Shown here: positions 1-30,968 of the stretch, piece by piece
How positions within the stretch are numbered: position 1 is the first letter of the stretch
Layout: the number at the start of each line of letters is the position of its first letter
Source of the DNA: Candidatus Pacearchaeota archaeon
Lineage (GTDB): Archaea; Nanobdellota; Nanobdellia; Pacearchaeales; GW2011-AR1
Assembly (NCBI GenBank): GCA_002686355.1
Contig: NZBV01000022.1
Coordinates: 1-32,555 of the forward strand
Direction of reading: 5' to 3'
DNA length: 32,555 bases
Notes under the pieces: model-generated
Told to the model about the DNA's origin: nothing
The model's input: the letters and a program-made list of their open reading frames with translations, nothing else
Database searches by the model: none
Position numbers and translations under genes: made by a program

Positions 1-1143
1 GTCTGTATTTTCACAATCTTTTTGACTTCCTTGAGAAGTACAATCTTGCCATTTATTGACTCTACATGCAGCTGTTTTAAATTCATTTACTTCATCTTGA
101 ATACAAACCTCTTGTCTGAAATCAGCGCAAGACTCAACACTCACCTCGTTGTCGTAACAGACCATTCTAAAGTATCTGCTTCCTGGCAAGTTGTCTTCCA
201 CTCCTTCCTGCCTTGCACACCATGTTTCTCCGTGCTCATAATTGTCTCCTGCGTACTCACAACTTAAATCCCTACAAATATTATCTCCATAAGTTGGTTT
301 TACCTTGTTTTGCCCTTTCTTGAAAGTTTTGCAAGTGCTTCCAAGATAATAATCACAATTCCCGCAAGTTGAAGAATCTGCATTTGAAGAATCATAACCA
401 CAACTCTCAAAATTGTTCTTGACTTTTGACCAATATTCTTTGTCATCTATTTTTCCAGAATCATAAATGTTTGCCAAGTTTCCGCAAGTGTCAATAAAAA
501 AAACTTCGTCCCTGCCTTCAACACAAGTTGTTTTCTTAGATGGTCCGCAATTAGTTCCTAATGTTTCAGCAGAGCATAAATAATCCTCGTGAAAAGAAGT
601 ATCCCCTGCCATCTCATTGCACTTTGCCTTTGAAATAAACAAGCAAGTCCTCTCAAATTCTTTTTCAAAAACACACGCACCCCTTGCTTTCGAAGTCGCT
701 GAAATAATACACTGGACTTCATTTGTAATATCTGTCCGATAATTTGTTTCCAAACCATAAATCGCAGACAATCTTTTACATCTTGTCTGAGTCACAAAAG
801 CAGCCTGGTCTCCAATCAAGCAACAACCCAATTGACATTGAGGAAGATCATCAGCATCCTCGTCATACCAAACACCAGTCTCATCCTCGCAGATTTTTTG
901 AGGTGTGTTATCCATACAAGTCCCTTCTGAACTATCAATGCAAGTCCCCAGTTTACAATATGCTGTTGCCTCGCACGACGTCGGCGCTTTTCTAAAACTC
1001 GCATCACAATTTCCTTCTGGCGCATTTTGACACCATGCTCCTGATGTTGTTTTTTCACAACAATACGATGTTTCTGCAGAAACAAAATTCCCAACTAACG
1101 AGAGAAACAAAATTCCCAAAAAGATTAATAATATTTTTTTCAT
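1..1143 (-). CDS. Giant cysteine-rich secreted/membrane protein, paralog 2 (N-terminal 381 codons only; the gene runs off the left edge)
   Basis: Absent from the ORF track because no stop lies inside the window. Reading the reverse complement from ATG 1143-1141 stays open for all 381 codons to position 1: MKKILLIFLGILFLSLVGNFVSAETSYCCEKTTSGAWCQNAPEGNCD... It has an N-terminal signal peptide. Cys spacing aligns with residues ~50-400 of the 1339-aa protein at 2008-6027 (CGNCDYYLGSTC vs CGNCNYFLGSRC; GACVFEKE vs GACVFENK; RMVCYDNEVSVESCADFRQEVCIQ vs RMCIEGEIKVEQCGDYRGQICIQ). Its ATG directly abuts the TAG of the upstream gene (1144-1146). Confidence 0.85.
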   Translation of the reverse strand, partial: MKKILLIFLGILFLSLVGNFVSAETSYCCEKTTSGAWCQNAPEGNCDASFRKAPTSCEATAYCKLGTCIDSSEGTCMDNTPQKICEDETGVWYDEDADDLPQCQLGCCLIGDQAAFVTQTRCKRLSAIYGLETNYRTDITNEVQCIISATSKARGACVFEKEFERTCLFISKAKCNEMAGDTSFHEDYLCSAETLGTNCGPSKKTTCVEGRDEVFFIDTCGNLANIYDSGKIDDKEYWSKVKNNFESCGYDSSNADSSTCGNCDYYLGSTCKTFKKGQNKVKPTYGDNICRDLSCEYAGDNYEHGETWCARQEGVEDNLPGSRYFRMVCYDNEVSVESCADFRQEVCIQDEVNEFKTAACRVNKWQDCTSQGSQKDCENTD

Positions 1144-1974
1144 CTAAACAACTCCTCCACCATAACCAGGAGGCCATGCAACACTCCTAGACGCAAACTG
1201 AAATTTATTTCCATTGTTCCTGTCTGTCAAAATATAAATCGTAGTCCCATCGCCCTGCTTTTTCTTTTCAACTTTCAAGTCATGATAATAATTCATGTAA
1301 ACAGTTGTCTCAGCGTCGCCATAGTTAGTCTCCCAATCCAAGATGCTATTTGCAATACTCACTAATTCATAAAGATTATTGTTAAACACGACCTCCAGAG
1401 GTTCATATATTGCTGCATCTTCTTTTTCAAGAGTAACTGAATTATTAAATCTTACAACAACTCTTTTTGGAAGCAATTCAACTTCAAAATCAGCATCTCC
1501 TGTTTCAAATCTATAACCCCTCCCCTGATAACTTGCCTTCATGTCTTCAAAACATTGCCTTGCTTTTATATTCACATTATTCTTGATTTCACTCTTAATA
1601 TGCTCCTTCAACATCGGTTGCTGAACAACACATGTCTTATAGTACTCGTTTGTATAACATAAATATTCAATCTTTTCATCTTTATACAGGATATAATGTT
1701 CTGGCTCAATGCTTCCTCCCTGGGATGATAGAATCTCCACGCTGTCTTCAATGTCATCTTCCAAGCATGTCTGAATATACAGCGACGGATTTTCAGGCCT
1801 AACCCCTAAACTTGATTTAATATTGGGATAAAACATGAAAATCAAAATCCCAAAAACTACAATCAGTATCCCTACAATAATGAAGATAGTTGTTTGTCCT
1901 CTTTCGTTCAAATGATTGTTTTGATTTGAACGAGCGAGAGGAAAAATTTTCAATTTTTTTTCACTCTTTTTCAT
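1144..1974 (-). CDS. Prepilin-like protein with putative class III signal peptide (paralog of 6003-6776)
   Basis: 276-aa ORF. The N-terminus ...NERGQTTIFIIVGILIVVFGILIFMF has a basic leader, then G|Q, then a hydrophobic helix, as in archaeal type IV pilin-like precursors. An in-frame TTG at 1911 would give the short leader MNERG, matching MKNRG of the paralog. Four Cys and blocks such as SSQGGSIEPE / LCYTNEYYKTCVVQQPML are conserved with the 261-aa paralog. Confidence 0.75.
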   Translation of the reverse strand: MKKSEKKLKIFPLARSNQNNHLNERGQTTIFIIVGILIVVFGILIFMFYPNIKSSLGVRPENPSLYIQTCLEDDIEDSVEILSSQGGSIEPEHYILYKDEKIEYLCYTNEYYKTCVVQQPMLKEHIKSEIKNNVNIKARQCFEDMKASYQGRGYRFETGDADFEVELLPKRVVVRFNNSVTLEKEDAAIYEPLEVVFNNNLYELVSIANSILDWETNYGDAETTVYMNYYHDLKVEKKKQGDGTTIYILTDRNNGNKFQFASRSVAWPPGYGGGVV

Positions 1975-2007
1975 GTTTAGTTTATGTTATTACGATTTAT
2001 AAATATT

Positions 2008-5000
2008 TCAATCAAATGATTTAACCTCAATGCTACAGCCATTCCCTTTGTTGCCCCAGATATCCCTGCACTGGATATGATATGTTTGTCCTGAAACTTT
2101 GCTTGCACTATGTTCTTTTGAAAATGCGGTTGTCATAGGAGAAGCATTGTCAATGTCAAAATTACACTTGTTAAAATCATAATAACATTCCGCTTCTTCA
2201 TCAGTCAAAATCTTTAGTTCATTGTTCTCATAATAAACTCTTGTGACAATTGGTGCAAAAGTGTCAAGATTTAGTACAAAATCAGTATTGGCATTTGCAA
2301 TATTACCTGCATCATCTTCACATTCAATAAAAAGAGTATACCCCCCAGACATCATTGAATCAAAGGATTGCTTATGATAATGAGAATAAGTATCAAAAAA
2401 CAAATTTGAAGTTCCATTTTCTGAAAATTTATAAAAACATACCGCCTCGCCATCTTTTGCTCCTCCAGAAGTACTTGCTTCTAATTCTACAGTAATAGGT
2501 TCAAACCCTCGGTTGATTTCTCCACTTGGAGAAACAGAAACAATTTCTAACTCACTTGTTGAGCTTTTTAATGTGAAAACAAAACTTTCTGAATGGGTGT
2601 TCGCATTTCTTATCTTTTTAATTGTATTCCCAACAACTAATCCCCCTTCTTTTATGATATTGTTTGTTAGCCAAGGCATACTTGATAATTGGATGTTAGT
2701 AGACACTGAACAATTATTTCCTGCCCCCATGCACCTTTTTATTATCCCAGAGGAAGGGTTTAATACATTTATTTCTGCTACCTTTTCTTGTTTTTCAGAA
2801 TTTTTTAATCTCCAGATACCATTTATCTTTTCTGTAGGATTTTTTACTAACCAAGTTAGATTTGTTATAGAATCTGTTATTAACCATTGCTCTCCCATAT
2901 CTGAAATATTAACTTCTTCTTCATTTCCCTCAGATTTTTTCTCAATCCAATTTATCCCAGTTACTACATCATCAATTAACCAAGGCTGATCTTTACACCG
3001 AATATAAAAATTATTTTCTTTTTTGTCCAAACCTGTTAATGTTGTATGACATTTCCATCCAAAATCAGTTGTTCGCAATAAATTTGTTTCACAGGCCATG
3101 TTTGTCCCCATATATCTATAGTCCCTGTCAATTGAATCAACTCTGCACTCTGCTGGCTCGTTTAAATAAACATCAAGATTTTTCTCAGTGTCCCCAAATG
3201 GAAGATAAGAACCCTGCTTTGGGGCTGTAGCCATAATAATCGGAGGAGTTAAGTCAGGCCCTTGATTAATGCAAAAATTAACAACATATTCATTTAAATT
3301 ATAGTTGCCGTGATAATCCTGGCACCGCACATACATGTTCATGTCAGAATACATCGCACTTAAATCTCCAATTGTATTGTAAGTATTAAGACTATCAACA
3401 CTCGGAGCTGAAAAAGCAAATGTATGATTCTCTGAAAACTTGTTTTGCCCAAGAGGATATTCTTTCATATCTTCATAATTATTTGTTCTTTCAAAACTAT
3501 ATTTGCACTGTGCATGCTCATCTGTATTCAAGGAAAATAAAACAGGCTTGAATTCTGTAATGCATTCTTTTCCAACCTCTTTTATCCTAATTTTGTTAGT
3601 GCCTTCTTGAATCAATGTAAGGTTAGGAAAAATTTCTCCTGGAGAAATTACAGGCGGTGTATTGTCATTTGGAATGCTCTCACAAATAGGATTCTCTTCA
3701 TCCTCATTTAATAATATACACGCTTTCCCAAGAGATTCACACCTGTATTCAGAACAAGGCTTTAAAATATCATCGTCGCACTTTTTACAATTGTCTCCCC
3801 CCAATGGCGCTTCCCACTGCATACATTCAAACTTAACAACAACTGTTTTTGTATCTCCCCATCCAATTATTTTGAAAACTATTGCCATTACTACTACAAC
3901 AATTACAGCCCAAATAACAGGGCCTAGAAGTGGGCCTAATTTACCCACTATTCCAAATGCTGCTAGATTTGAACCTTTAAATGCTGCATATGCAGCAACC
4001 CCTCCTGCAATCCCTCCTGCAATTGATAATGCCAATGCAGCATTACCTTGAATATCAAATGCTTTTGCAGCCAAACTCCCAACCATCATACCTATTGCAA
4101 CCCCTCCTGCAGCAGCACCAACAGAGCCCAATGTTGTGGCTGCAGCACCAGACATTTTCATTCCAAGAAGAGATGCTGTTTGGGTAGTTGTAGTCATACC
4201 GCCAATAGTGGATGTTATTGTTGAAGTAGCCATAATCATGTATAACCCCCCAATCAATGCCCCCACTCCAAAAGAAATCATCCCAAGCAACTTAACACCT
4301 TTAGCAAAATCATTTTCTTCAGCTCCAGCAACACCCCCATCTCTCCCCCCACTTCCTCCACCCATCTCTTCTAAAACCTGGGCAATACTTTTTGGTTTTG
4401 CAAATTGTCCTTCAACTGGTTCTGAATATTTTTTATAATCTTGCCAATCAATTCCAGGAGCATTCTGAACTTCTGAATTTTCTGTTCCATCTCCAATATA
4501 ATTTACATAACTACCACAATCTCCCAAACCAATACACAAGTCACTCATCTGCTCTGAAAATTCACTGCTTTCACATTCACAATTCTGTTCACAATTCCAG
4601 CTCCCTTTCCAATCTTTTACATAAAGAACTTCGCATGTTTGACTTGCCATCCCGCACACATTTGGAGATTCTAGAGCTTCATCTCCTGTCAAGTAAGAAC
4701 CTTTGGGGTATTTCCCGACGCAAATATCAAATTGAAATTGGTCAGTAATCCTAATTTCTTTCCAGACACAATATTCATTTCCCTGACAAGCAGCTGCCTT
4801 GGGGTTCTCTTGCAGTGAATTATAATTGAGACATATATTTGCTTCATTAATCACACATGCAGCCATTGTGAAGTTCTTTCCTGTCCTATTGTTCCCCATT
4901 TCCGATTGAATACAAATCTGTCCTCTGTAATCCCCACACTGTTCAACTTTTATTTCTCCCTCAATACACATTCTCTTCCAGTGTCGGCTTCCAACAGTAT

Positions 5001-6003
5001 CTTTTCCGTCGCCAATAAAAGAATCGTAAACACACCAACTTTCCCCATTTACTCTTTCCCTTCCTTCAGAATCAACACAATTTAAATTTTCACAGATAAA
5101 ATCCCCATCTTTGATAGAACCCCCTGTTATTTTAAGATTTGCCAGAATATTTGTTTCAGCACACCTGCTTCCTAAAAAATAATTACAATTTCCACAATCT
5201 TGAGAATCTGCATTTGAAGAACTTGCACCACAACTGTCTTCTTTTCTCAAAACTTCCCCCTCATTCCACGACGCATCTTTGTCAGATGAATAAATATTTT
5301 CCTTATTTCCGCAACTATCAAACCAGTAAATTTCGGCTTTTCTTTCAAGGCACCCAGTTGAATTTTGTTTTTCACAAGTTGTGTCCAAACTTTTTTTAGA
5401 ACATAAACTATTTTCTGAAAAATCTCCTCCTAACCTCCCACACCCACTTTCTGTTGTAAACTTGCAAACTTTATTTTCAAAAACACACGCTCCTTGTGAC
5501 TGGACTGCTGCAAGTGCAAGACACTCATATTCTGTTTCCAAATCTCTGAAGTCTTTTTCAAACCCAAATACCAAAGAAAGCTGTTCACATCTTTTGTCGG
5601 TAACAAACTGGATTTCATCTCCTAAAACACAACATCCTTTTTGGCATTCAAAGATATTACAATTTTCATCTCCCTGCCAAACCCCCAAATCATCTTCACA
5701 TTTCCCTTTTGGAGATTTAGTAGTGCATAAGCCCTCTTTTTCATCAACACAACAACCAATTTTACAATCTACCGATGTCTCACACTTTGTCTGTTGAAGC
5801 GCCTTAGCACAATTATCATAATCAGAAAGAACATTCTGGCAAATTGCTCCGTCATTAGTTTTAGGACAGCATGAAAACGCTTGGGCAGAAACACTTGGAA
5901 TCAAATCTAATTGATTCAATTGATAACTATTTGCAAAAAGCATAGTTGCCAACAAGAAAATTTGGAATACTGCTATGAACAATAAAATATTTTTGTTTTT
6001 CAT
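2008..6003 (-). CDS. Giant (about 1330 aa) cysteine-rich surface protein with a signal peptide, Cys-rich ectodomain, glycine-zipper multi-TM core and a C-terminal beta-rich repeat ectodomain
   Basis: Uninterrupted 1339-codon ORF (track 2008-6027). The start is more likely ATG 6003-6001 (MKNKNILLFIAVFQIFLLATMLFANS, a signal-peptide-like N-terminus), which overlaps the TAA of the upstream gene as TAATG. The central segment LLGMISFGVGALIGGLYMIM...GAAAGGVAIGMMVGSLAA...LSIAGGIAGGVAAYAAF...PVIWAVIVVVVMAIVFKIIGW has about 4 hydrophobic Gly/Ala-rich helices. There are many Cys and N-x-S/T sequons on both sides of it. Confidence 0.9.
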   Translation of the reverse strand: MKNKNILLFIAVFQIFLLATMLFANSYQLNQLDLIPSVSAQAFSCCPKTNDGAICQNVLSDYDNCAKALQQTKCETSVDCKIGCCVDEKEGLCTTKSPKGKCEDDLGVWQGDENCNIFECQKGCCVLGDEIQFVTDKRCEQLSLVFGFEKDFRDLETEYECLALAAVQSQGACVFENKVCKFTTESGCGRLGGDFSENSLCSKKSLDTTCEKQNSTGCLERKAEIYWFDSCGNKENIYSSDKDASWNEGEVLRKEDSCGASSSNADSQDCGNCNYFLGSRCAETNILANLKITGGSIKDGDFICENLNCVDSEGRERVNGESWCVYDSFIGDGKDTVGSRHWKRMCIEGEIKVEQCGDYRGQICIQSEMGNNRTGKNFTMAACVINEANICLNYNSLQENPKAAACQGNEYCVWKEIRITDQFQFDICVGKYPKGSYLTGDEALESPNVCGMASQTCEVLYVKDWKGSWNCEQNCECESSEFSEQMSDLCIGLGDCGSYVNYIGDGTENSEVQNAPGIDWQDYKKYSEPVEGQFAKPKSIAQVLEEMGGGSGGRDGGVAGAEENDFAKGVKLLGMISFGVGALIGGLYMIMATSTITSTIGGMTTTTQTASLLGMKMSGAAATTLGSVGAAAGGVAIGMMVGSLAAKAFDIQGNAALALSIAGGIAGGVAAYAAFKGSNLAAFGIVGKLGPLLGPVIWAVIVVVVMAIVFKIIGWGDTKTVVVKFECMQWEAPLGGDNCKKCDDDILKPCSEYRCESLGKACILLNEDEENPICESIPNDNTPPVISPGEIFPNLTLIQEGTNKIRIKEVGKECITEFKPVLFSLNTDEHAQCKYSFERTNNYEDMKEYPLGQNKFSENHTFAFSAPSVDSLNTYNTIGDLSAMYSDMNMYVRCQDYHGNYNLNEYVVNFCINQGPDLTPPIIMATAPKQGSYLPFGDTEKNLDVYLNEPAECRVDSIDRDYRYMGTNMACETNLLRTTDFGWKCHTTLTGLDKKENNFYIRCKDQPWLIDDVVTGINWIEKKSEGNEEEVNISDMGEQWLITDSITNLTWLVKNPTEKINGIWRLKNSEKQEKVAEINVLNPSSGIIKRCMGAGNNCSVSTNIQLSSMPWLTNNIIKEGGLVVGNTIKKIRNANTHSESFVFTLKSSTSELEIVSVSPSGEINRGFEPITVELEASTSGGAKDGEAVCFYKFSENGTSNLFFDTYSHYHKQSFDSMMSGGYTLFIECEDDAGNIANANTDFVLNLDTFAPIVTRVYYENNELKILTDEEAECYYDFNKCNFDIDNASPMTTAFSKEHSASKVSGQTYHIQCRDIWGNKGNGCSIEVKSFD

Positions 6004-6776
6004 TACATACCAGCTGGCATCACACACCCCCTTACAGCGAATCTAAAACTCTCTCCACTTTTTCTGTGTTTTAATGTATAGATTGTTTTTGAGTCTCCGG
6101 TTTTAAACTTGTCAAGTTCAAATTCGGGATTAAGCAACATAAGACCCATTTGTTCAAAATGACAATATTTTGCTTCCTGGCTGACAATTTCTTGTGCAAC
6201 AACAGCCAGATTATAAAACATCGTCGGAATCCTGACTTCAAAATTTTTTTGTTTAGAAGTTTCTCCTGTTTTTGTAAGAATAATCTTTCCGTAAATATTC
6301 ACCAATATTTTTTTTGGAATCAATTCAATTCCAAATCCTTCATAAGAGGAATTAACAACATAATCTTGTTTTTCTAAATTTGACATTAAATCATCAAAAC
6401 AATTTTCAACATCTTCTAAAATATAGTTTTTTATTTCATCTTTTAGATGCCGAATTAACATTGGCTCTTGGTTCACGCAGGGAATGTAATTATTTTCAGT
6501 ATAGCAAAGATATGAAATGTTTTGATGTTTCTCCTTTTCAAATTTAAATCCAAAACTAAATTCTGGTTCAATATACCCCCCTTGAGGAGACATAATTGCA
6601 ATGGCTTCTTTTACTTTTCCCGCAATGCAAGATTCAAAAAATATGTTTGGATTTGTTTCTTTCCCAAAATCTAATTGGGGAATTAATTTCCCCCTGTAAA
6701 AGAATAATAGTACGATAATCACAATTAGGATTACTCCTGCAATTATAAATATGTTCATCTGTCCTCGATTTTTCAT
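6003..6776 (-). CDS. Prepilin-like protein with putative class III signal peptide (paralog of 1144-1974)
   Basis: ORF track 6003-6788. The start is more likely ATG 6776-6774, giving MKNRG|QMNIFIIAGVILIVIIVLLFF, and it overlaps the TGA of the upstream wHTH gene as ATGA. It is homologous along its length to the 276-aa protein (SPQGGYIEPE, LCYTENNYIPCVNQEPML, F.F..R motifs). Confidence 0.8.
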   Translation of the reverse strand: MKNRGQMNIFIIAGVILIVIIVLLFFYRGKLIPQLDFGKETNPNIFFESCIAGKVKEAIAIMSPQGGYIEPEFSFGFKFEKEKHQNISYLCYTENNYIPCVNQEPMLIRHLKDEIKNYILEDVENCFDDLMSNLEKQDYVVNSSYEGFGIELIPKKILVNIYGKIILTKTGETSKQKNFEVRIPTMFYNLAVVAQEIVSQEAKYCHFEQMGLMLLNPEFELDKFKTGDSKTIYTLKHRKSGESFRFAVRGCVMPAGM

Positions 6777-6958
6777 TTTAATACCCATAAATTAACACCT
6801 TGTTTTTTAATTTTTTGAACCTTACCATCCACGACTAATTCAAGAAGATGCTTATCAGCAGTATTCCATGAAACCTTAAGATGCTTCGCAATTTCCGAGC
6901 TAGTTACAACCTTTTCTTTTTTCAGAAGCCGTAATATCTTTTTACTATGAGATTTCAT
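6773..6958 (-). CDS. Small winged-helix (wHTH) DNA-binding protein, putative transcription regulator
   Basis: The track ORF 6773-7042 would overlap PCNA. The internal ATG at 6958 gives the 61-aa product MKSHSKKILRLLKKEKVVTSSEIAKHLKVSWNTADKHLLELVVDGKVQKIKKQGVNLWVLK. This matches the H1-H2-H3-wing pattern of small archaeal wHTH proteins. The stop overlaps the next start (ATGA). Confidence 0.65.
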   Translation of the reverse strand: MKSHSKKILRLLKKEKVVTSSEIAKHLKVSWNTADKHLLELVVDGKVQKIKKQGVNLWVLK

Positions 6959-7972: not shown

Positions 7973-9505
7973 ATGCCAGAAAATTCCCCCTCAATCAAAG
8001 AACAACGAATTAGAAAAATCACGCATTTGTATTACTCGCGAAAAGACGTGCAAAAAGCAATGTTTGAGTTTTCACAAAATCGGGAAATTTCGCCACAATA
8101 TTTCGAAGGTTTTGGAAAAAGACCAGATTCTTTTCAATACCCAAATGACATTTTTGAACTTGTAAAAAAAGGAGCAACTTCATTCCATTGTTCAGAAGAA
8201 TTATGGGACAACCCTCTAAACATAATAACAGGCATGACAGAAGAACAAGCAAATGAATTGCGAATCGGCTGGGACTTGCTAATAGATGTTGATTGCAAGT
8301 GGTTTGATTACAGCAAACTCGCAGCACAGGCAATAATAAAAGTCCTTGAAAATCATCAGATAAAAAACATAGGAATAAAATTTTCTGGCTCAAAAGGATG
8401 GCACATTTTAATCCCATGGAAATCTTTTCCAAAAGAAATTGGTAATGAGCAAACTAAAGACTTGTTCCCAGAACTGCCAAGGAAAATTGTAGATTACATT
8501 CGATTTAAAACAGAAGAAGAACTCACGAAAAATCTCCCGGCGGATTTTGAAGAACAGTTTAAGAATGTTAAAATAAAAAAAGGAATAAAATGTAACCAGT
8601 GCAAGGAGATTGCAAATGAATTTATTCTTACAGATTTTTTTTGCGAGGATTGCGGAATTGGTGAGCACAGAAAACTCGCGCCAGAAGACAAGACAGAATT
8701 CAAATGCCCAAACTGTAGACAAAATTTCGAGGTAAAAAATTCAATAGATATTTACGAATGCAACAGATGTAACATCGACTCGGGAAAAAACCAGAACAAT
8801 TTTTCCCAAACAATCGAGACAGATATTTTCGAAGTTATGGGTCTTGACTTGCTTCTTGTCTCTCCCCGTCACTTATTCCGGATGCCCTATTCTCTTCATG
8901 AAAAAACAGCATTGGCAAGCATGGTCTTGAACAAAGACGAGGTTTTAGATTTTGAACTAAAAGATGCAGACTCTATGAGCATTCAGATAAAAAATTTCAT
9001 GCCAGATTCAGAAGAAGGAGAAGCAAAAGAACTTGTTATGCAGGCAGTGGATTGGGATAGGGAAAATAAAATTTTTCGCGGTGAGTCAGAAGAAAAAGTC
9101 ACAGGCAAATACGCAGAATTCAAGCCAATAAAACTTGATAGAATTTTAGAAGAAAACTTTCCCCCTTGCGTAAAAAGAATATTAAACGGACTTGCTGATG
9201 GAAGAAAAAGAACTTTGTTTGTCCTGATAAATTTATTTCGTTCTGTTGGAATGGACAAGGAAGAACTTGAAAAAAAAATCAACGAGTGGAACACAAAAAA
9301 CGAGGTTCCTCTAAAAAAAGGTTATATCATCTCCCAACTTTTATGGAGTTATAAACGAAAACCAATTATGCCTCAAAACTGCAGAACTTTTTACCAGGAT
9401 ATCGGCATTTGCACCCCTGATGAATTTTGTCCGAAAATAAAAAATCCAGTGAATTATGTTGTGAGGAAGAGTTTTGTTGGAAAGAAAAAAGAGAGAAGGA
9501 AATGA
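7973..9505 (+). CDS. Archaeo-eukaryotic primase with the catalytic PriS-like domain fused to a PriL-CTD-like Fe-S domain
   Basis: AEP motifs are DLLIDVD (motif I), SGSKGWHILIP (motif II) and FRMPYSLHEKT (motif III). The insert has four CxxC pairs (CNQC, CEDC, CPNC, CNRC). The C-terminal region FPPCVKRILNGLADGRKRTLFVLINLF...NCRTFYQDIGICTPDEFC resembles the 4-Cys PriL C-terminal domain. Confidence 0.85.
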   Translation: MPENSPSIKEQRIRKITHLYYSRKDVQKAMFEFSQNREISPQYFEGFGKRPDSFQYPNDIFELVKKGATSFHCSEELWDNPLNIITGMTEEQANELRIGWDLLIDVDCKWFDYSKLAAQAIIKVLENHQIKNIGIKFSGSKGWHILIPWKSFPKEIGNEQTKDLFPELPRKIVDYIRFKTEEELTKNLPADFEEQFKNVKIKKGIKCNQCKEIANEFILTDFFCEDCGIGEHRKLAPEDKTEFKCPNCRQNFEVKNSIDIYECNRCNIDSGKNQNNFSQTIETDIFEVMGLDLLLVSPRHLFRMPYSLHEKTALASMVLNKDEVLDFELKDADSMSIQIKNFMPDSEEGEAKELVMQAVDWDRENKIFRGESEEKVTGKYAEFKPIKLDRILEENFPPCVKRILNGLADGRKRTLFVLINLFRSVGMDKEELEKKINEWNTKNEVPLKKGYIISQLLWSYKRKPIMPQNCRTFYQDIGICTPDEFCPKIKNPVNYVVRKSFVGKKKERRK

Positions 9506-11939: not shown

Positions 11940-12971
11940 ATGAAACAATTAATAATATTCTCAATTTTTCTTTTTCTATTCCCTGTTGTTTCTTCAATTG
12001 AATTCACAATGAATCAAGAATTCCAGAAAGGAGAAACATTAATAGCAAAAGTTTCAGGCAACTTTATGGAGCCTATTCTTAAGGAAAATATTGGGTTTTT
12101 TAGGGGGCATGTTCGTGTGGCCATTGAGCCATTTGTGGCAAAAATCAATGAAGAATTTTACATTTATGCACACTTGCCAGAAAATTCAGATAATTATTCA
12201 ATTGTCATAACTGGAGTTAAATATTTTAAAGGAAGTAAGATTAGTGACACAAACCTGACAGAAGATTTCACAATCACAAATCAGACAGCGCAATTTTCAG
12301 TTGACAAAGGGTTTGTTGTTTCAGATGATGATTTCTATCTTGAAGTTCAAAACCTCCAGGATTTTGCAATAACGATTAATGTTGGTCAACAAACAATTTT
12401 AGGAGACACAGACGATTTTAGAGTAACAAATCCAGGAATATTAAAATCAGGAGATATTGAAAAAATAAATTTCGCAATTGGCGAATTAACAGAACCCACT
12501 TTGAAAACAATGGCTTTAACTTCAGGAGAATTTAGTTATGAGATTCTTGTGGATATATACGGGATAAGCAGAGAGGCAAAAGAAGTTGCAATGGAAGGCA
12601 AGGATTTCATTGACTTGGATGAACAAGAGAAAGAAATAATTGTTGTTGAGGAGGAATATGTCCCGACAACAACTGCTACCTGCGGAGAACTTAATGGAAC
12701 AATCTGTACTGAAGACCAAGAGTGCGATGAAGAAGTAGAATATACACCAGAGAAGGATAAGACGACTGGTAAGTGCTGTTTAGGAACCTGCACAGAAAAA
12801 CCAGAATCTTCAACAGGAGCAATAATCGGTTGGGGACTTGTGATTGTAATCATCGGATTTTTAATCTGGTTTTTAAAATTCAGATATCGGCCTGCAAAAA
12901 GAGAAATTAACCTGCTTGACATTGGCAAAGGCAAAAAACTAGAATCAAAAAAAGGCAGTACAAAATCATGA
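11940..12971 (+). CDS. Type I membrane surface protein with one Cys-rich juxtamembrane stalk module
   Basis: Signal peptide MKQLIIFSIFLFLFPVVSS, then a beta-rich ectodomain. The module TCGELNGTICTEDQECDEE...GKCCLGTCTEKPE matches the modules of the 605-aa protein. TM helix IIGWGLVIVIIGFLIWFL, followed by a short basic tail. Confidence 0.8.
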   Translation: MKQLIIFSIFLFLFPVVSSIEFTMNQEFQKGETLIAKVSGNFMEPILKENIGFFRGHVRVAIEPFVAKINEEFYIYAHLPENSDNYSIVITGVKYFKGSKISDTNLTEDFTITNQTAQFSVDKGFVVSDDDFYLEVQNLQDFAITINVGQQTILGDTDDFRVTNPGILKSGDIEKINFAIGELTEPTLKTMALTSGEFSYEILVDIYGISREAKEVAMEGKDFIDLDEQEKEIIVVEEEYVPTTTATCGELNGTICTEDQECDEEVEYTPEKDKTTGKCCLGTCTEKPESSTGAIIGWGLVIVIIGFLIWFLKFRYRPAKREINLLDIGKGKKLESKKGSTKS

Positions 12972-22356: not shown

Positions 22357-22815
22357 TTAATTTTTTAAATTATTCGTTAACCATGAATTAACAATTTTTA
22401 AACACATCTTTTGGTTTGACCATTTTAATTTTTTCAGGGCATCAGAAAAACTAACCCACTTGTAATCAGAATGTTCTTCTTTGCTCAATCGGATTTTTGA
22501 CATCTTAACTTCAACAGCATAAAGTTTATAACTCTGTCCAACAAAGCCTTTTTTGTCAGAGTATTTTTTATCATACTCATATTTCCCCTGTTTATTAAAT
22601 TTCTTTATCTCTAAAATTTTCAAACCTGTTTCTTCCTTAATCTCCCTCCCGATAGCCATTCTTTCTGTTTCATAAAATCTCCTTCCCCCCTTAGGAAATT
22701 CCCATCCTTTCCAGTGCAATTTTCTTTTTAGAATCGAGTACCTAACTCCTTGTTCAGTCTTTGCATATATCACAATAAAAAGCGCACGACGGTATTTCAT
22801 CTTAACACCATTCAT
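22357..22815 (-). CDS. Nudix hydrolase (Ap4A-hydrolase/Nudt2-like pattern)
   Basis: The Nudix box is GWEFPKGGRRFYETERMAIGREIKEETGL. The downstream YKLYAVEVKMSKIRLSKEEHSDYKWVSF resembles the YWLAEVK...LS.EH..Y.W segment of asymmetric Ap4A hydrolases. An alternative start lies at 22800. The long form overlaps the rbcL 3' end by 14 nt. Confidence 0.85.
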   Translation of the reverse strand: MNGVKMKYRRALFIVIYAKTEQGVRYSILKRKLHWKGWEFPKGGRRFYETERMAIGREIKEETGLKILEIKKFNKQGKYEYDKKYSDKKGFVGQSYKLYAVEVKMSKIRLSKEEHSDYKWVSFSDALKKLKWSNQKMCLKIVNSWLTNNLKN

Positions 22816-24058
22816 TTAATGCTTCTTCTAACTCAACATGTGTCCTTGCATACTCTTTCAAACTCTTTTTTTTCAACACAGCATCAACGGCTTGCCTCAT
22901 TGCAATTGCTCCTGCCTGTGTTCCAAACGGATGTCCGTGAATCCCTCCTCCTGCCTGAATAACTAAATCTTTTCCCAAATGTTTGATCAAGAAAGGGACG
23001 TGGCCGGGATGAAGCCCGCCCGACGACACAGGCATAACTGGTTTGATATTTCTCCAGTCTTGCGTTAACATCTTTTCTGTTTTCTTAACTTTCATTCTTG
23101 AGATATCTTCCTTGATTTCTCTTATGTCTTTTATTTTCCCTTCGAGTTTTCCAATGCCTGTTCCAATATGAATCTGGTCAACACCAATTAATCTCGCAAA
23201 GTCTGCAATAACTTTCATGCTCATTCCATGCTCGGGATTTCTGTCAAAAGCCGCATGCATTGCCCGATGCGCGTGAATTGCAAGTTTAAAATTAGCCTCA
23301 CGAAGAGTCTGAATAGCAGCCCAGCCAGAAGTTAGAATATCAACCATTATATATTTGCTCCCCATTTTCTCAGCCAGTTGTGCGCGTTTTAACATCTCTT
23401 TTGTCTCAGCAGTAGCATTAACCAAATAAACTTTTTTTTCTCCTGTTTCTTTCTCAGTTTTGTCGGCCATTTCCAAAGTCTTGGCTAATCTCTTTTCAAA
23501 AACATTAAATTTTTGCGATGCTAAATTTTCGTCATCTTTTACAATGTCACAACCCCCTTTCCATGATTCATAAGCAGACTCAGCATGATGCTTTGGGTTC
23601 AGCCCAAGTTTTGGTTTGATGATTGTACCAATAAACGGACGGTTCTTAACTTTCAACAGTCTTCTGACACCTTTAATTCCATACCTCGGGCCTTTGAATT
23701 TTCCCAAAATCTTTGTAGGAAAACTAATGTCTTCAAGTCTTATTGATTTAACAGCTTTCATACCAAAAATATTTCCGGCAATTGACGACAAGATATTTGG
23801 GATATTATCTTTTTCAAAAAGTTCCGAGGGATAGGCAATTTTTATCCAGCCATTTCTCTTTATTGAAAAAACTTTTGCTTTCAGTTTTTCAACATAATCC
23901 CTCTCTTTTATTTTTGTCCATGTTCCAACACTTGATTCAAGTGCAACAGTGTTTGCAGCTTTTTCAAGAGAAATGCGATTAGGAACAATTTTAAACAAAC
24001 AAACCAAATCATCCCGCGGTTTGTATTTTAAGTTTATGAAATCAAGCCTCTTTTTCAT
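22802..24058 (-). CDS. rbcL: Ribulose-1,5-bisphosphate carboxylase large subunit, form III (archaeal type)
   Basis: The 418-aa product has the catalytic motifs GTIIKPKLGL, GGCDIVKDDENL (carbamylated Lys plus metal ligands), IHAHRAMHAA, SSGGLHPG and GGGIHGHP. No small-subunit gene lies nearby. Confidence 0.95.
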   Translation of the reverse strand: MKKRLDFINLKYKPRDDLVCLFKIVPNRISLEKAANTVALESSVGTWTKIKERDYVEKLKAKVFSIKRNGWIKIAYPSELFEKDNIPNILSSIAGNIFGMKAVKSIRLEDISFPTKILGKFKGPRYGIKGVRRLLKVKNRPFIGTIIKPKLGLNPKHHAESAYESWKGGCDIVKDDENLASQKFNVFEKRLAKTLEMADKTEKETGEKKVYLVNATAETKEMLKRAQLAEKMGSKYIMVDILTSGWAAIQTLREANFKLAIHAHRAMHAAFDRNPEHGMSMKVIADFARLIGVDQIHIGTGIGKLEGKIKDIREIKEDISRMKVKKTEKMLTQDWRNIKPVMPVSSGGLHPGHVPFLIKHLGKDLVIQAGGGIHGHPFGTQAGAIAMRQAVDAVLKKKSLKEYARTHVELEEALNEWC

Positions 24059-29723: not shown

Positions 29724-30086
29724 ATGATGGATGTTCAAATCTGGCTTTTAATTCTAGTCGCAGTAATGATTGTAATCCTTGCTGTATTGGCAATTTTCAC
29801 AACTCGTAGAAGAAAGAGACCAATAGACTATTGCAGTTTTTTCATAATGGGGGTTATCTGGTTCGCAGTAGGAATACTTTTTAAGAATTATATACTTTTT
29901 ACAGTTGGCTTAATCTTCACAATCGTTGGTTTAGTCCATAAAAAAAACTGGAAAAAGAACAGATTGCGCTGGTCTGATTTAGATAAAAAAGAAAAAAAAT
30001 GGAGGATTATTCTAATGATTGCTCTTGGAGGGATATTACTTATAGGCGCTCTTGCTTTATTCTTGGTTAGTAAAAGAATAATCTGA
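29724..30086 (+). CDS. Small integral membrane protein (about 4 TM helices)
   Basis: The 120-aa product has the hydrophobic segments IWLLILVAVMIVILAVLAIF, FFIMGVIWFAVGILF, ILFTVGLIFTIVGLV and IILMIALGGILLIGALALFLV. Confidence 0.65.
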   Translation: MMDVQIWLLILVAVMIVILAVLAIFTTRRRKRPIDYCSFFIMGVIWFAVGILFKNYILFTVGLIFTIVGLVHKKNWKKNRLRWSDLDKKEKKWRIILMIALGGILLIGALALFLVSKRII

Positions 30087-30968
30087 TTGCTCTGGCTGAA
30101 CATTTCCCTGAGGTGTTGCTTCAGATGTTTCTTGAATTTGTTTTTTGTTTCTCAATTTTTTAAAAATAGAAATCCCCAAAATTATGATTCCTCCCGCAAT
30201 AATAATAATTAAGAGGATAATCATTACTCTTCCAAATAAAGAACTATCTTTCTTTTGTTCTGGTTTTTTAACATTTAGCTCATTTTTTGAGAAAGTTTCA
30301 TTCTCAATGACTCTTGTCTCATTTGTCTCTGTTATATTAGAAGTTGTCTCATTTTTTGAAACACTTTCGGCAATCTCTATAAACTCTGCATTCTCATCCT
30401 CGCATTTTTTCACAATAATTATTGCATTTGTATCAGAGGCAGAAAATAACTCCAGGAGATAGTCTACATCATCTACAGATTCAATCTTTGTCGGGGAAGT
30501 ATTGTCAAGGAGCACTTCTTTGTTCCCAATAAGCCCTTCTATTGTTGCTGTTCCAGGATAAGTTCCTTGTGCAGAAGTTAAAAATAATTTACGGTTGTTT
30601 ATATCAAGAATCTCCAGAAGTTCTGCTTTTCCTGAATCACTACCCACTTTTATTCTAATTAAGTTTGAGGTTAGATTGAGGAGTTCTATAGTATCTGCCC
30701 CGCTTTTCATTTCAACCTCGGTAGAATTGCTTGTGTCTGTTAAGGTAAATTTCACGGTATCTATAAGCAGTTTCACAGAATACTTTTCCAGTGTAGCAAT
30801 CTCATCTGAATAAGTCAAGCCTATCCCTAATCCCTTTATAGAAGTCCTGCCATTAAGACTAATCTCTTTTTGATCTTCTTCAGCTAAACCAACAGAGCAG
30901 TTATATCCTGCAGAAATAAAATTAGTTAATAAAAAAAATATAATTACAAATAACCCTCCTTTTTTCAT
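30057..30968 (-). CDS. Type I membrane surface protein rich in N-glycosylation sequons
   Basis: Signal peptide MKKGGLFVIIFFLLTNFISA, then a beta-rich ectodomain with multiple N-x-S/T sequons (NCS, NST, NLT, NTS, NET, NIT). TM helix VMIILLIIIIAGGIIILGISIF, followed by a polar tail. Confidence 0.75.
   Translation of the reverse strand: MKKGGLFVIIFFLLTNFISAGYNCSVGLAEEDQKEISLNGRTSIKGLGIGLTYSDEIATLEKYSVKLLIDTVKFTLTDTSNSTEVEMKSGADTIELLNLTSNLIRIKVGSDSGKAELLEILDINNRKLFLTSAQGTYPGTATIEGLIGNKEVLLDNTSPTKIESVDDVDYLLELFSASDTNAIIIVKKCEDENAEFIEIAESVSKNETTSNITETNETRVIENETFSKNELNVKKPEQKKDSSLFGRVMIILLIIIIAGGIIILGISIFKKLRNKKQIQETSEATPQGNVQPEQSDYSFTNQE

Follow-up and report, generated by a model that had tools for sequence, protein, structure and literature searches.

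The giant gene analysed here lies at 2008-6027 on the minus strand of a 32,555-nucleotide stretch of DNA (the window; Candidatus Pacearchaeota archaeon, assembly GCA_002686355.1, contig NZBV01000022.1, positions 1 to 32,555), and it encodes a protein whose middle, we suggest with moderate confidence, acts as a membrane-embedded hinge built around a glycine-zipper hairpin in a conserved surface protein of DPANN archaea. The segment in question occupies 3855-4375 (minus strand), which corresponds to residues 551-725, and comparative sequence analysis bears out that it is a helical module of hydrophobic character whose glycine zipper is real and conserved. An earlier note on this DNA had pictured the segment as a four-helix membrane core set between two extracellular domains, and had raised the idea of a pore or a membrane-fusion element; we regard anchoring and helix packing as the more economical reading. 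The parts of the giant are given below, with confidence values (predicted local distance difference test, pLDDT) from the AlphaFold2 (AF2) models discussed later.

2008-6027, minus strand: giant gene, 1339 residues counted from GTG, member of an unannotated DPANN family
5929-5988, minus strand: TM0, N-terminal hydrophobic helix (residues 14-33), a signal anchor or signal peptide
4393-5895, minus strand: Cys-rich N-terminal domain, very probably an ectodomain (residues 45-545, 46 Cys; pLDDT ~90)
4297-4392, minus strand: acidic Gly-rich flexible linker (residues 546-577, includes GGGSGGRDGGVAGAEE; pLDDT <50)
4228-4296, minus strand: H1 (residues 578-600), Gly-rich and weakly hydrophobic, with conserved G582, G586 and G589; crossing uncertain
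4141-4227, minus strand: loop L12 (residues 601-629), variable, rich in Thr, Ser, Gly and Ala
4060-4140, minus strand: H2 (residues 630-656), first arm of the predicted glycine-zipper hairpin
4045-4059, minus strand: H2-H3 loop (residues 657-661), family consensus LAKxFG(L/I)xGDAA
3964-4044, minus strand: H3 (residues 662-688), second arm of the predicted hairpin, encoded in part by a 12-nucleotide tandem repeat
3865-3936, minus strand: H4 (residues 698-721), aliphatic and strongly hydrophobic (Hessa sum -2.0), without a zipper
3847-3864, minus strand: GWG(K/D)TK junction (residues 722-727), running straight into the first beta-strand of the C-domain
2011-3852, minus strand: C-terminal domain (residues 726-1339), opening with a small 8-Cys subdomain, after which Ig-like beta-sandwiches follow in a chain

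The segment's composition sets it apart from the rest of the protein. Gly and Ala make up 20.6% and 16.6% of residues 551-725, and the five residues Gly, Ala, Thr, Ile and Val together account for 61%, against 29% in the remainder of the giant; the mid-protein segment of about 170 residues that had been described on these grounds is thus confirmed, and the peptides quoted from it are all present. The segment holds no Cys at all. Upstream of it there are 46 and downstream 23. Kyte-Doolittle peaks fall at residues ~580-600, 640-660, 668-688 and 705-725, besides one at the N terminus of the protein. Two 12-nucleotide tandem repeats underlie parts of the region: one at 3995-4023 (2.4 copies) encodes the (GGIA)n part of H3, where a repeat of four codons generates the i+4 glycine spacing, and the other, at 4334-4369 (2.9 copies), encodes the Gly-rich linker. 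The GC content rises to 0.41 at the core, relative to ~0.34 around it, because of the Gly and Ala codons. Opposite the core, on the plus strand, are two antisense open reading frames (3662-4051 and 4136-4438; 129 and 100 residues), most likely by-products of this codon bias, since protein conservation follows the minus strand.

We defined the zipper motif as [GAS]xxxGxxxG or GxxxGxxx[GST]. In the window protein it starts at residues 585, 638, 642 and 668, that is, in H1, H2 and H3 and nowhere in H4. Among the 112 homologues whose cores were aligned, it was observed in H1 in 64 (32 expected from shuffling), in H2 in 88 (36 expected), in H3 in 74 (45 expected) and in H4 in 5 (10 expected). Shuffling within segments thus yields the motif only about half as often as it occurs in H1-H3, and H4 shows no enrichment; these figures are descriptive and carry no probability, because the sequences are related. 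The description of all four helices as full of GxxxG and AxxxG spacings fits H1, H2 and H3, and fails for H4, which is plainly aliphatic.

The giant belongs to a large family. A database search returned 597 matches at E<=1e-3; the best 120 of these are 1013-1520 residues long and without Pfam domains, and where the 120 carry names, these mostly read hypothetical protein, from Nanoarchaeota or Pacearchaeota. When one genome of each species was scanned, 395 family loci came to light, of which 79 distinct ones were kept; almost all of the 79 come from Pacearchaeota, Woesearchaeota or Nanoarchaeota. The nearest relative of the giant is 60-65% identical. Neither the whole protein nor a 33-sequence profile found a usable match in Pfam, NCBIfam or the PDB sequences, and literature searches yielded no description of the family. 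The likelier start of the giant is Met9, at the ATG at position 6003 (1331 residues), since the stop codon of the upstream gene overlaps that ATG as TAATG. The giant's DNA occurs with zero differences in contigs of four marine metagenome runs from four different studies, and is therefore not an assembly artefact; a search for RNA sequencing runs carrying the locus found none. In one marine run a 5.4-kb contig matches only 4475-4528 (54 nucleotides, the GDCGSYVNY region) with four differences, presumably because a related strain or paralogue shares that motif.

Conservation of the core was assessed in 109 homologues that possess both flanking motifs, GDCG...NY before it and F.C.PWQAP after it. 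The segment is kept in 107 of the 109, at a length of 170-282 residues (median 218); the presence of the region in orthologues, on which the earlier note had made its proposal depend, is thereby borne out. P0119, a variant that lacks even H4, is known from one record only, in which short repeats border two internal deletions; it looks like a gene-model artefact and was set aside. In the dedicated alignment of 112 cores, overall identity is low, and the glycine positions spaced at i+4 are far better conserved than their neighbours. In H1 the frequencies are 0.78 for G582, 0.95 for G586 and 0.88 for G589. H2 has G642 at 0.58, G646 at 0.91 and G650 at 0.77, followed by A654 (Gly, Ala or Ser in 0.84); the H2-H3 loop has G658 at 0.88 and G661 at 0.92; and H3 has G671 at 0.84, G675 at 0.89 and Gly in 0.60 at position 679, where the window protein has Ala. 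The window protein also departs from the family at 658, with Asp where 88% of homologues have Gly. At the end of H4, G722 reaches 0.97 and G724 0.98. Charged and polar residues do not exceed a frequency of 0.08 at 639-654, 666-680 and 705-718.

Two overlapping AF2 models, each built on a 60-sequence alignment, cover residues 140-1339 (mean pLDDT 73.8) and 9-760 (mean pLDDT 78.3). Both large domains are predicted with confidence (pLDDT about 85-95), and the N-terminal helix of the giant scores 69-82. In the 9-760 model the core helices span 574-598 (H1), 630-656 (H2), 662-688 (H3) and 698-721 (H4). H2-H4 have pLDDT values of 52-84, with a loop of five residues joining H2 to H3; linker 556-573 and the Thr-rich loop 601-629 appear disordered or of low pLDDT; and a strand with pLDDT >90 starts four residues past H4. 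H4 is the one transmembrane segment, among those predicted, that we regard as certain.

The hairpin at the center of the module comes close to known families. H2-loop-H3 consists of a helix, a short loop and a second helix, with GxxxG repeats in both arms. Two of 33 full-length homologues matched the Glycine zipper 2TM (two-transmembrane) domain at E ~0.005, and when H2-loop-H3 of ten homologues was scanned, the best PF05433 scores were 22.9 and 21.4 bits (E=8e-5 and 2e-4), spanning model positions 2-41 of 43; the gathering threshold of 24.2 bits was reached by none of the hairpins scanned. Gly-zipper_YMGG was matched by a homologue hairpin at E=9e-5. Given these near-full-length matches just below threshold, we describe the predicted H2-loop-H3 as a borderline relative of the 2TM glycine-zipper domain found in lipoproteins of the SlyB/YfgH type. 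Families PF05433 (Rick_17kDa_Anti; SlyB, YfgH, OsmB), Gly-zipper_YMGG and Gly-zipper_Omp share with the giant a pair of ~20-residue GxxxG helices and a short loop. The known members of these families are small bacterial outer-membrane lipoproteins, whereas the hairpin of the giant is internal to a 1300-residue archaeal protein, accompanied by an extra weak helix and an extra aliphatic one and flanked by two large domains.

The neighborhood of the giant supplies the comparisons on which its topology can be judged. The minus strand of 1-6788 carries, in order, a small gene of 261 residues, the giant, a small gene of 276 residues and a second Cys-rich gene.

6003-6788, minus strand: upstream partner, 261 residues, with NRGQ and a hydrophobic helix at its N terminus; its stop overlaps the giant's ATG
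1144-1974, minus strand: second putative pilin-like partner, 276 residues, 33% identical to the 261-residue partner
1-1143, minus strand: B-N, a paralogue with the N-domain only and a cleavable Sec signal, truncated at the window edge

B-N is 35% identical to the N-domain of the giant and 70% identical to a complete orthologue of 489 residues that lacks a hydrophobic core. In related loci B-N has ~490-540 residues, a cleavable Sec signal and no hydrophobic segment, and ends just past GDCG..NY. The expectation that this neighboring paralogue would hold an equivalent of the core proves wrong: B-N is short and secreted and ends before it. Because B-N has no core, the comparison must be made with B-C, a separate gene of 670-930 residues in which an N-terminal anchor is followed by a variable region, three hydrophobic helices and a domain homologous to the C-domain. 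The family motif of TM0, QIFLL..A.SY, resembles the N-terminal helix of B-C, and many giants retain, before their first CC motif, a relic (IKQIGxVSA) of the B-N signal. An anchor like that of B-C together with a relic of the B-N signal is consistent with fusion or fission of modules at the hinge. A fused version of the B type is found at L067:10204-14109.

Other full-length paralogues, encoded in several lineages, join N- and C-domains without any core, through a polar or amphipathic linker that contains no transmembrane segment. They occur at L078:9569-12949, L051:3940-7167, L011:9625-13311, L015:10964-14797, L029:11287-15126 and L080:10001-13840. The best 19-residue Hessa sums at the junction are +9.6, +9.2 and +5.6 in the first three of these, and +5 to +7 in the P0086-type core-less paralogue, which was found in at least 24 contigs.

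We consider it very probable that the N-domain and the C-domain are both extracellular, an arrangement that requires an even number of crossings. In the core-less paralogues the two domains must share one compartment, and the Sec-type N termini place it outside. Composition agrees. In a log-odds score of exported versus cytoplasmic composition, trained on the proteins of the window with Cys ignored, the C-domain scores +0.055 per residue, the N-domain +0.064 and B-N +0.073, while 13 of the 14 cytoplasmic proteins in the window score below zero; the Lys share of the C-domain is 6.7%, against 13.4% in cytoplasmic proteins. The chain of Ig-like folds and the invariant Cys point the same way, and these lines of evidence, which differ from those of the note, back the earlier placing of both flanks outside, with an even helix count. 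Composition, helices, conservation, the register of the zipper, the near-match to Pfam, the operon and the modular paralogues are shown directly; insertion of the giant into the membrane, its crossing number, the outside position of its C-domain and any oligomerisation are what we infer.

The flanking domains deserve some description. The N-domain is predicted with high confidence, yet a Foldseek search with the N-half and core together found nothing in the PDB at E<=1e-3, and the domain appears to be a novel fold with no solved relative. With the C-half, Foldseek returned only generic tandem matches of immunoglobulin (Ig) or fibronectin type III (FN3) folds (titin, GhpA, alpha2-macroglobulin, phage tail proteins), and scanning homologues singly gave sub-threshold matches to Big_13, Big_3_3 and Y_Y_Y. 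Every Ig-like repeat carries an invariant C...H...CxD..GN signature. All 21 conserved Cys of the C-domain are invariant in the 112 sequences, and an analysis of Cys co-loss in that domain consequently gave no signal. Repeats 2 and 4 have extra Cys pairs, and the 8-Cys subdomain includes CxxC and CxxxxC. One insertion of ~100 residues in the C-domain (2617-2928, minus strand; residues 1034-1137) is present only in the window protein among the 112 homologues; it has pLDDT <50 and contains C1099 and C1106, a Cys pair of its own, as well as three of the protein's ten sequons. The flanks had also been called rich in sequons, and this does not hold: the window protein has 3 in the N-domain and 7 in the C-domain, and family-wide the ratio of observed to expected is 0.37 in the N-domain (depleted) and 0.98 in the C-domain (neutral). 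Since the N-domain, which is certainly exported, is depleted, we ruled out sequon enrichment as a marker of localization.

Several results weigh against a membrane hinge of this kind or against its even crossing number. The window's own segment matched no Pfam glycine-zipper model, even at E<=10. AF2 places four helices, but H1 reaches a pLDDT of only ~30; the confidences support a helix-loop-helix plus a third helix and do not support a confident four-helix bundle. Positive-inside counts favor neither of the even-crossing models, and the loops that the four-helix model would put in the cytoplasm have a Lys plus Arg (K+R) value of 0.94. The split paralogue B-C, with its anchor and three helices, has at face value an odd count after the anchor. 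A profile comparison (hhalign) of the giant's core with that of B-C was not significant (E=0.11), and for this reason the equivalence of the two cores is one of position.

These points bear most directly on a three-crossing topology, in which H1 would stay outside, H2 and H3 would form a transmembrane hairpin and H4 would act as a stop-transfer segment, leaving in the cytoplasm a C-domain that binds zinc through Cys, His and Asp; the giant would then join an external receptor domain to an internal scaffold. We think this improbable, though several observations favor it: H1 is weak and not placed by AF2, K+R peaks right after H4 (2.59 in 15 residues) and is low in loops L12 and L34, the Thr/Ser-rich L12 looks extracellular, B-C has its anchor and three helices, sequons are depleted in the N-domain and neutral in the C-domain, and each subdomain has its Cys, His and Asp in sets of about four. 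Set against this, the core-less paralogues with Sec signals hold both domains in one soluble chain, the C-domain is export-like in composition (Lys 6.7% versus 13.4%) and rods of tandem Ig-like domains typify surface proteins. Since the core-less exported paralogues retain the basic residues ahead of the first C-domain strand, these residues belong to the domain and are not a topogenic signal; the basic patch after H4, through which positive-inside counting had pointed to an odd topology, was discounted for the same reason.

Two arrangements with both domains outside remain. Four crossings, by H1-H4, would fit an intact H2-H3 hairpin plus H4. Two crossings, by H2 and H4 with H3 on the cytoplasmic face, would fit B-C, where the third helix is short and contains Lys. 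Hydropathy profiles of the 112 sequences show four peaks in 49, three in 42, five in 12 and two in 9. H4 alone has a negative Hessa sum throughout, and H1 is weakly hydrophobic in most homologues and absent from B-C.

The hinge that we favor can be pictured as follows. The Cys-rich N-terminal ectodomain would lie outside, tethered through the flexible acidic linker to a module consisting of the weak, Gly-rich H1, the H2-loop-H3 zipper hairpin and the aliphatic anchor H4. Within this module the chain would dip into the membrane of its own cell and return, with two or four crossings, and the C-terminal stalk of Ig-like sandwiches would begin outside, four residues past the last helix. A zipper of small residues would permit tight helix-helix packing within the core, and the zipper helices might find further packing partners in the N-terminal helix or in the helices of the pilin-like proteins encoded alongside. 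The role of the module would be one of anchoring and packing, possibly with lateral assembly, in a surface complex specified by a pilin-type operon.

That zipper helices from several copies instead build a pore, or a permeabilizing or fusion-like element used on a host cell, strikes us as doubtful. In its favor, glycine zippers do occur in membrane-active proteins. VacA, MscS, Abeta, the type VI secretion system (T6SS) effector Tde1 and the type VII secretion system (T7SS) toxin LXG-T2 share (G,A,S)xxxGxxxG with H1, H2 and H3, and in channel-forming, toxin and membrane-translocating proteins it confers tight helix packing and sometimes membrane permeabilization (Tde1, PMC10240207; LXG toxin, PMC12955049; PMC3178497). 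SlyB-type hairpins, the 2TM glycine-zipper lipoproteins, are located in the membrane and pack laterally into rings (bioRxiv 10.64898/2025.12.22.696046). Given zippers in membrane-active toxins and in ring-forming lipoproteins, lateral assembly of the giant is conceivable; its family is, besides, confined to archaea of the episymbiont type, and its ordered zipper is conserved. Against a pore, Foldseek found no channel, toxin or fusogen fold for the giant in the PDB or BFVD, and the motif by itself is not diagnostic of a pore. Weak Foldseek matches to Vtc1 and TIM22, small three-helix membrane proteins, had a probability of ~0.1 and were ignored. The 112 cores have no conserved polar or charged face that could line a pore. 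Paralogues drop the core and yet keep both ectodomains, so that it has the behavior of a dispensable anchor and not that of the functional center. The pore or fusion idea of the earlier note consequently finds no backing in fold, helix face or paralogues.

The operon raises another possibility. The conserved order is a pilin-like gene (about 257 residues), the giant, a second pilin-like gene, B-N and often B-C. A small partner lies upstream of the giant in 79 of 79 loci, most loci repeat the pattern, and in the window the 276-residue gene and B-N abut, TAG being followed directly by ATG. An archaeal class III (pilin or archaellin) signal consists of [K/R]-G, then Q or A, and a hydrophobic helix of about 20 residues. 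The small proteins have the N-terminal consensus K-[RK]-G-Q-V-T-I-F-I-I-I-A-I, anchored in 91 of 141 homologues, and the two in the window carry NRGQMNIFIIAG and ERGQTTIFIIVG, both of which conform to the class III pattern; judged by these N termini, the small partners look like archaeal class III (type IV pilin-like) signal proteins. The core helices might therefore reside in the membrane only transiently and be extracted, as pilin helices are, into the core of a filament tip or base together with these partners. We rate this as quite unlikely. In its favor, genes with class III signals of the KRGQ type stand on either side of the giant and are coupled to it in translation, four further pilin-like genes lie downstream in the locus of the closest relative, and the N-terminal helices of the giant and B-C are alike. 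On the other side, the window showed no gene for a filament ATPase, a platform protein or a prepilin peptidase, none of the Pfam and NCBIfam pilin models matches the window's small proteins, and to our knowledge an internal four-helix segment is without precedent among type IV filament subunits.

Two known kinds of system invite comparison with this operon. Bacterial clusters of minor pilins and a large adhesin, of the fimU-pilVWXY1E type, and the archaeal type IV filament (TFF) subsystem 4A/B with its PilY-like adhesin likewise encode several small class III-signal proteins alongside surface proteins of very large size; for archaeal TFF, loci that include adhesins have been described (bioRxiv 10.64898/2026.04.22.720090). 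Homology of the giant's operon to PilY1 or to known pilins was not detected, and unlike those clusters the giant has an internal membrane module of its own and no adjacent gene for an assembly ATPase or platform protein. The SPEARE proteins of Nanohaloarchaeota reportedly resemble the giant in being predicted surface proteins of very large size, specific to their lineage, in archaea that depend on hosts. The giant differs from them in phylum, in its central membrane module and in its conserved pilin-like operon, and the protease, restriction-enzyme and laminin-type domains of SPEARE were not detected in it or in the homologues scanned.

A combined view, in which the giant, the split paralogue and the pilin-like proteins form an envelope machine specific to DPANN archaea, with zipper hairpins making a ring or conduit at the site of host contact, is a speculation to which we attach little weight. 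If it were true, such a ring would amount to a new kind of organelle for cell-cell transfer or attachment. The notion that the segment is a low-complexity flexible spacer with neither defined structure nor membrane role, suggested by its Gly/Ala/Thr richness, the 12-nucleotide repeats at 3995-4023 and 4334-4369 and the low pLDDT at 556-573 and 601-629, is disfavored and very improbable, as Gly is conserved in helical register, charged and polar residues are nearly absent over runs of 17-21 residues in the 112 sequences, H4 has a Hessa sum of -2.0 and homologues come close to the Pfam threshold for 2TM glycine zippers.

Pacearchaeota and Woesearchaeota, which are abundant and uncultured, are thought to be host-dependent. 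The locus defined here, which had no annotation, is among the most conserved surface loci of these archaea, and the zipper module provides a concrete handle for work on topology and oligomerisation. The narrow result is modest: a known helix-packing motif probably provides the internal anchor of a new family of proteins. The type of motif is known; what is new is that, in an unannotated and widely conserved DPANN family, it would act as a hinge inside the chain, with an ectodomain on either side, and also the series of fused, split and core-less versions, a natural comparative series from which to learn what membrane anchoring contributes. We see in it a solid lead for the surface biology of DPANN archaea.

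Some further genes merit mention. In related loci PCNA often lies just upstream of the operon, and in L023 two Lys-rich small open reading frames (L023:10559-10924 and L023:12670-13014; 121 and 114 residues) stand between cassette genes and look, by sequence, like candidate toxin components of the HEPN/DUF86 type. The neighbors of the giant in the window include PCNA, a fused PriS-PriL primase, aminoacyl-tRNA synthetases, RuBisCO and other housekeeping genes, as befits an archaeal chromosome of the DPANN type. The primase is a single 510-residue open reading frame at 7973-9505 (plus strand) with weak matches to the small and large primase subunits, which we take to be the fused PriS-PriL familiar from Nanoarchaeota-type genomes. 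At 22802-24058 (minus strand) lies a homologue of the RuBisCO large subunit (E=4e-91), in a genome otherwise reduced in metabolism; we assume that it is probably of form III and belongs to a nucleotide salvage pathway. Two unannotated open reading frames gave sub-threshold matches, that at 11940-12971 (plus strand) to the P2X receptor ectodomain (E=0.0016) and that at 30057-30968 (minus strand) to a CD1107-like mobile-element protein (E=2e-4).

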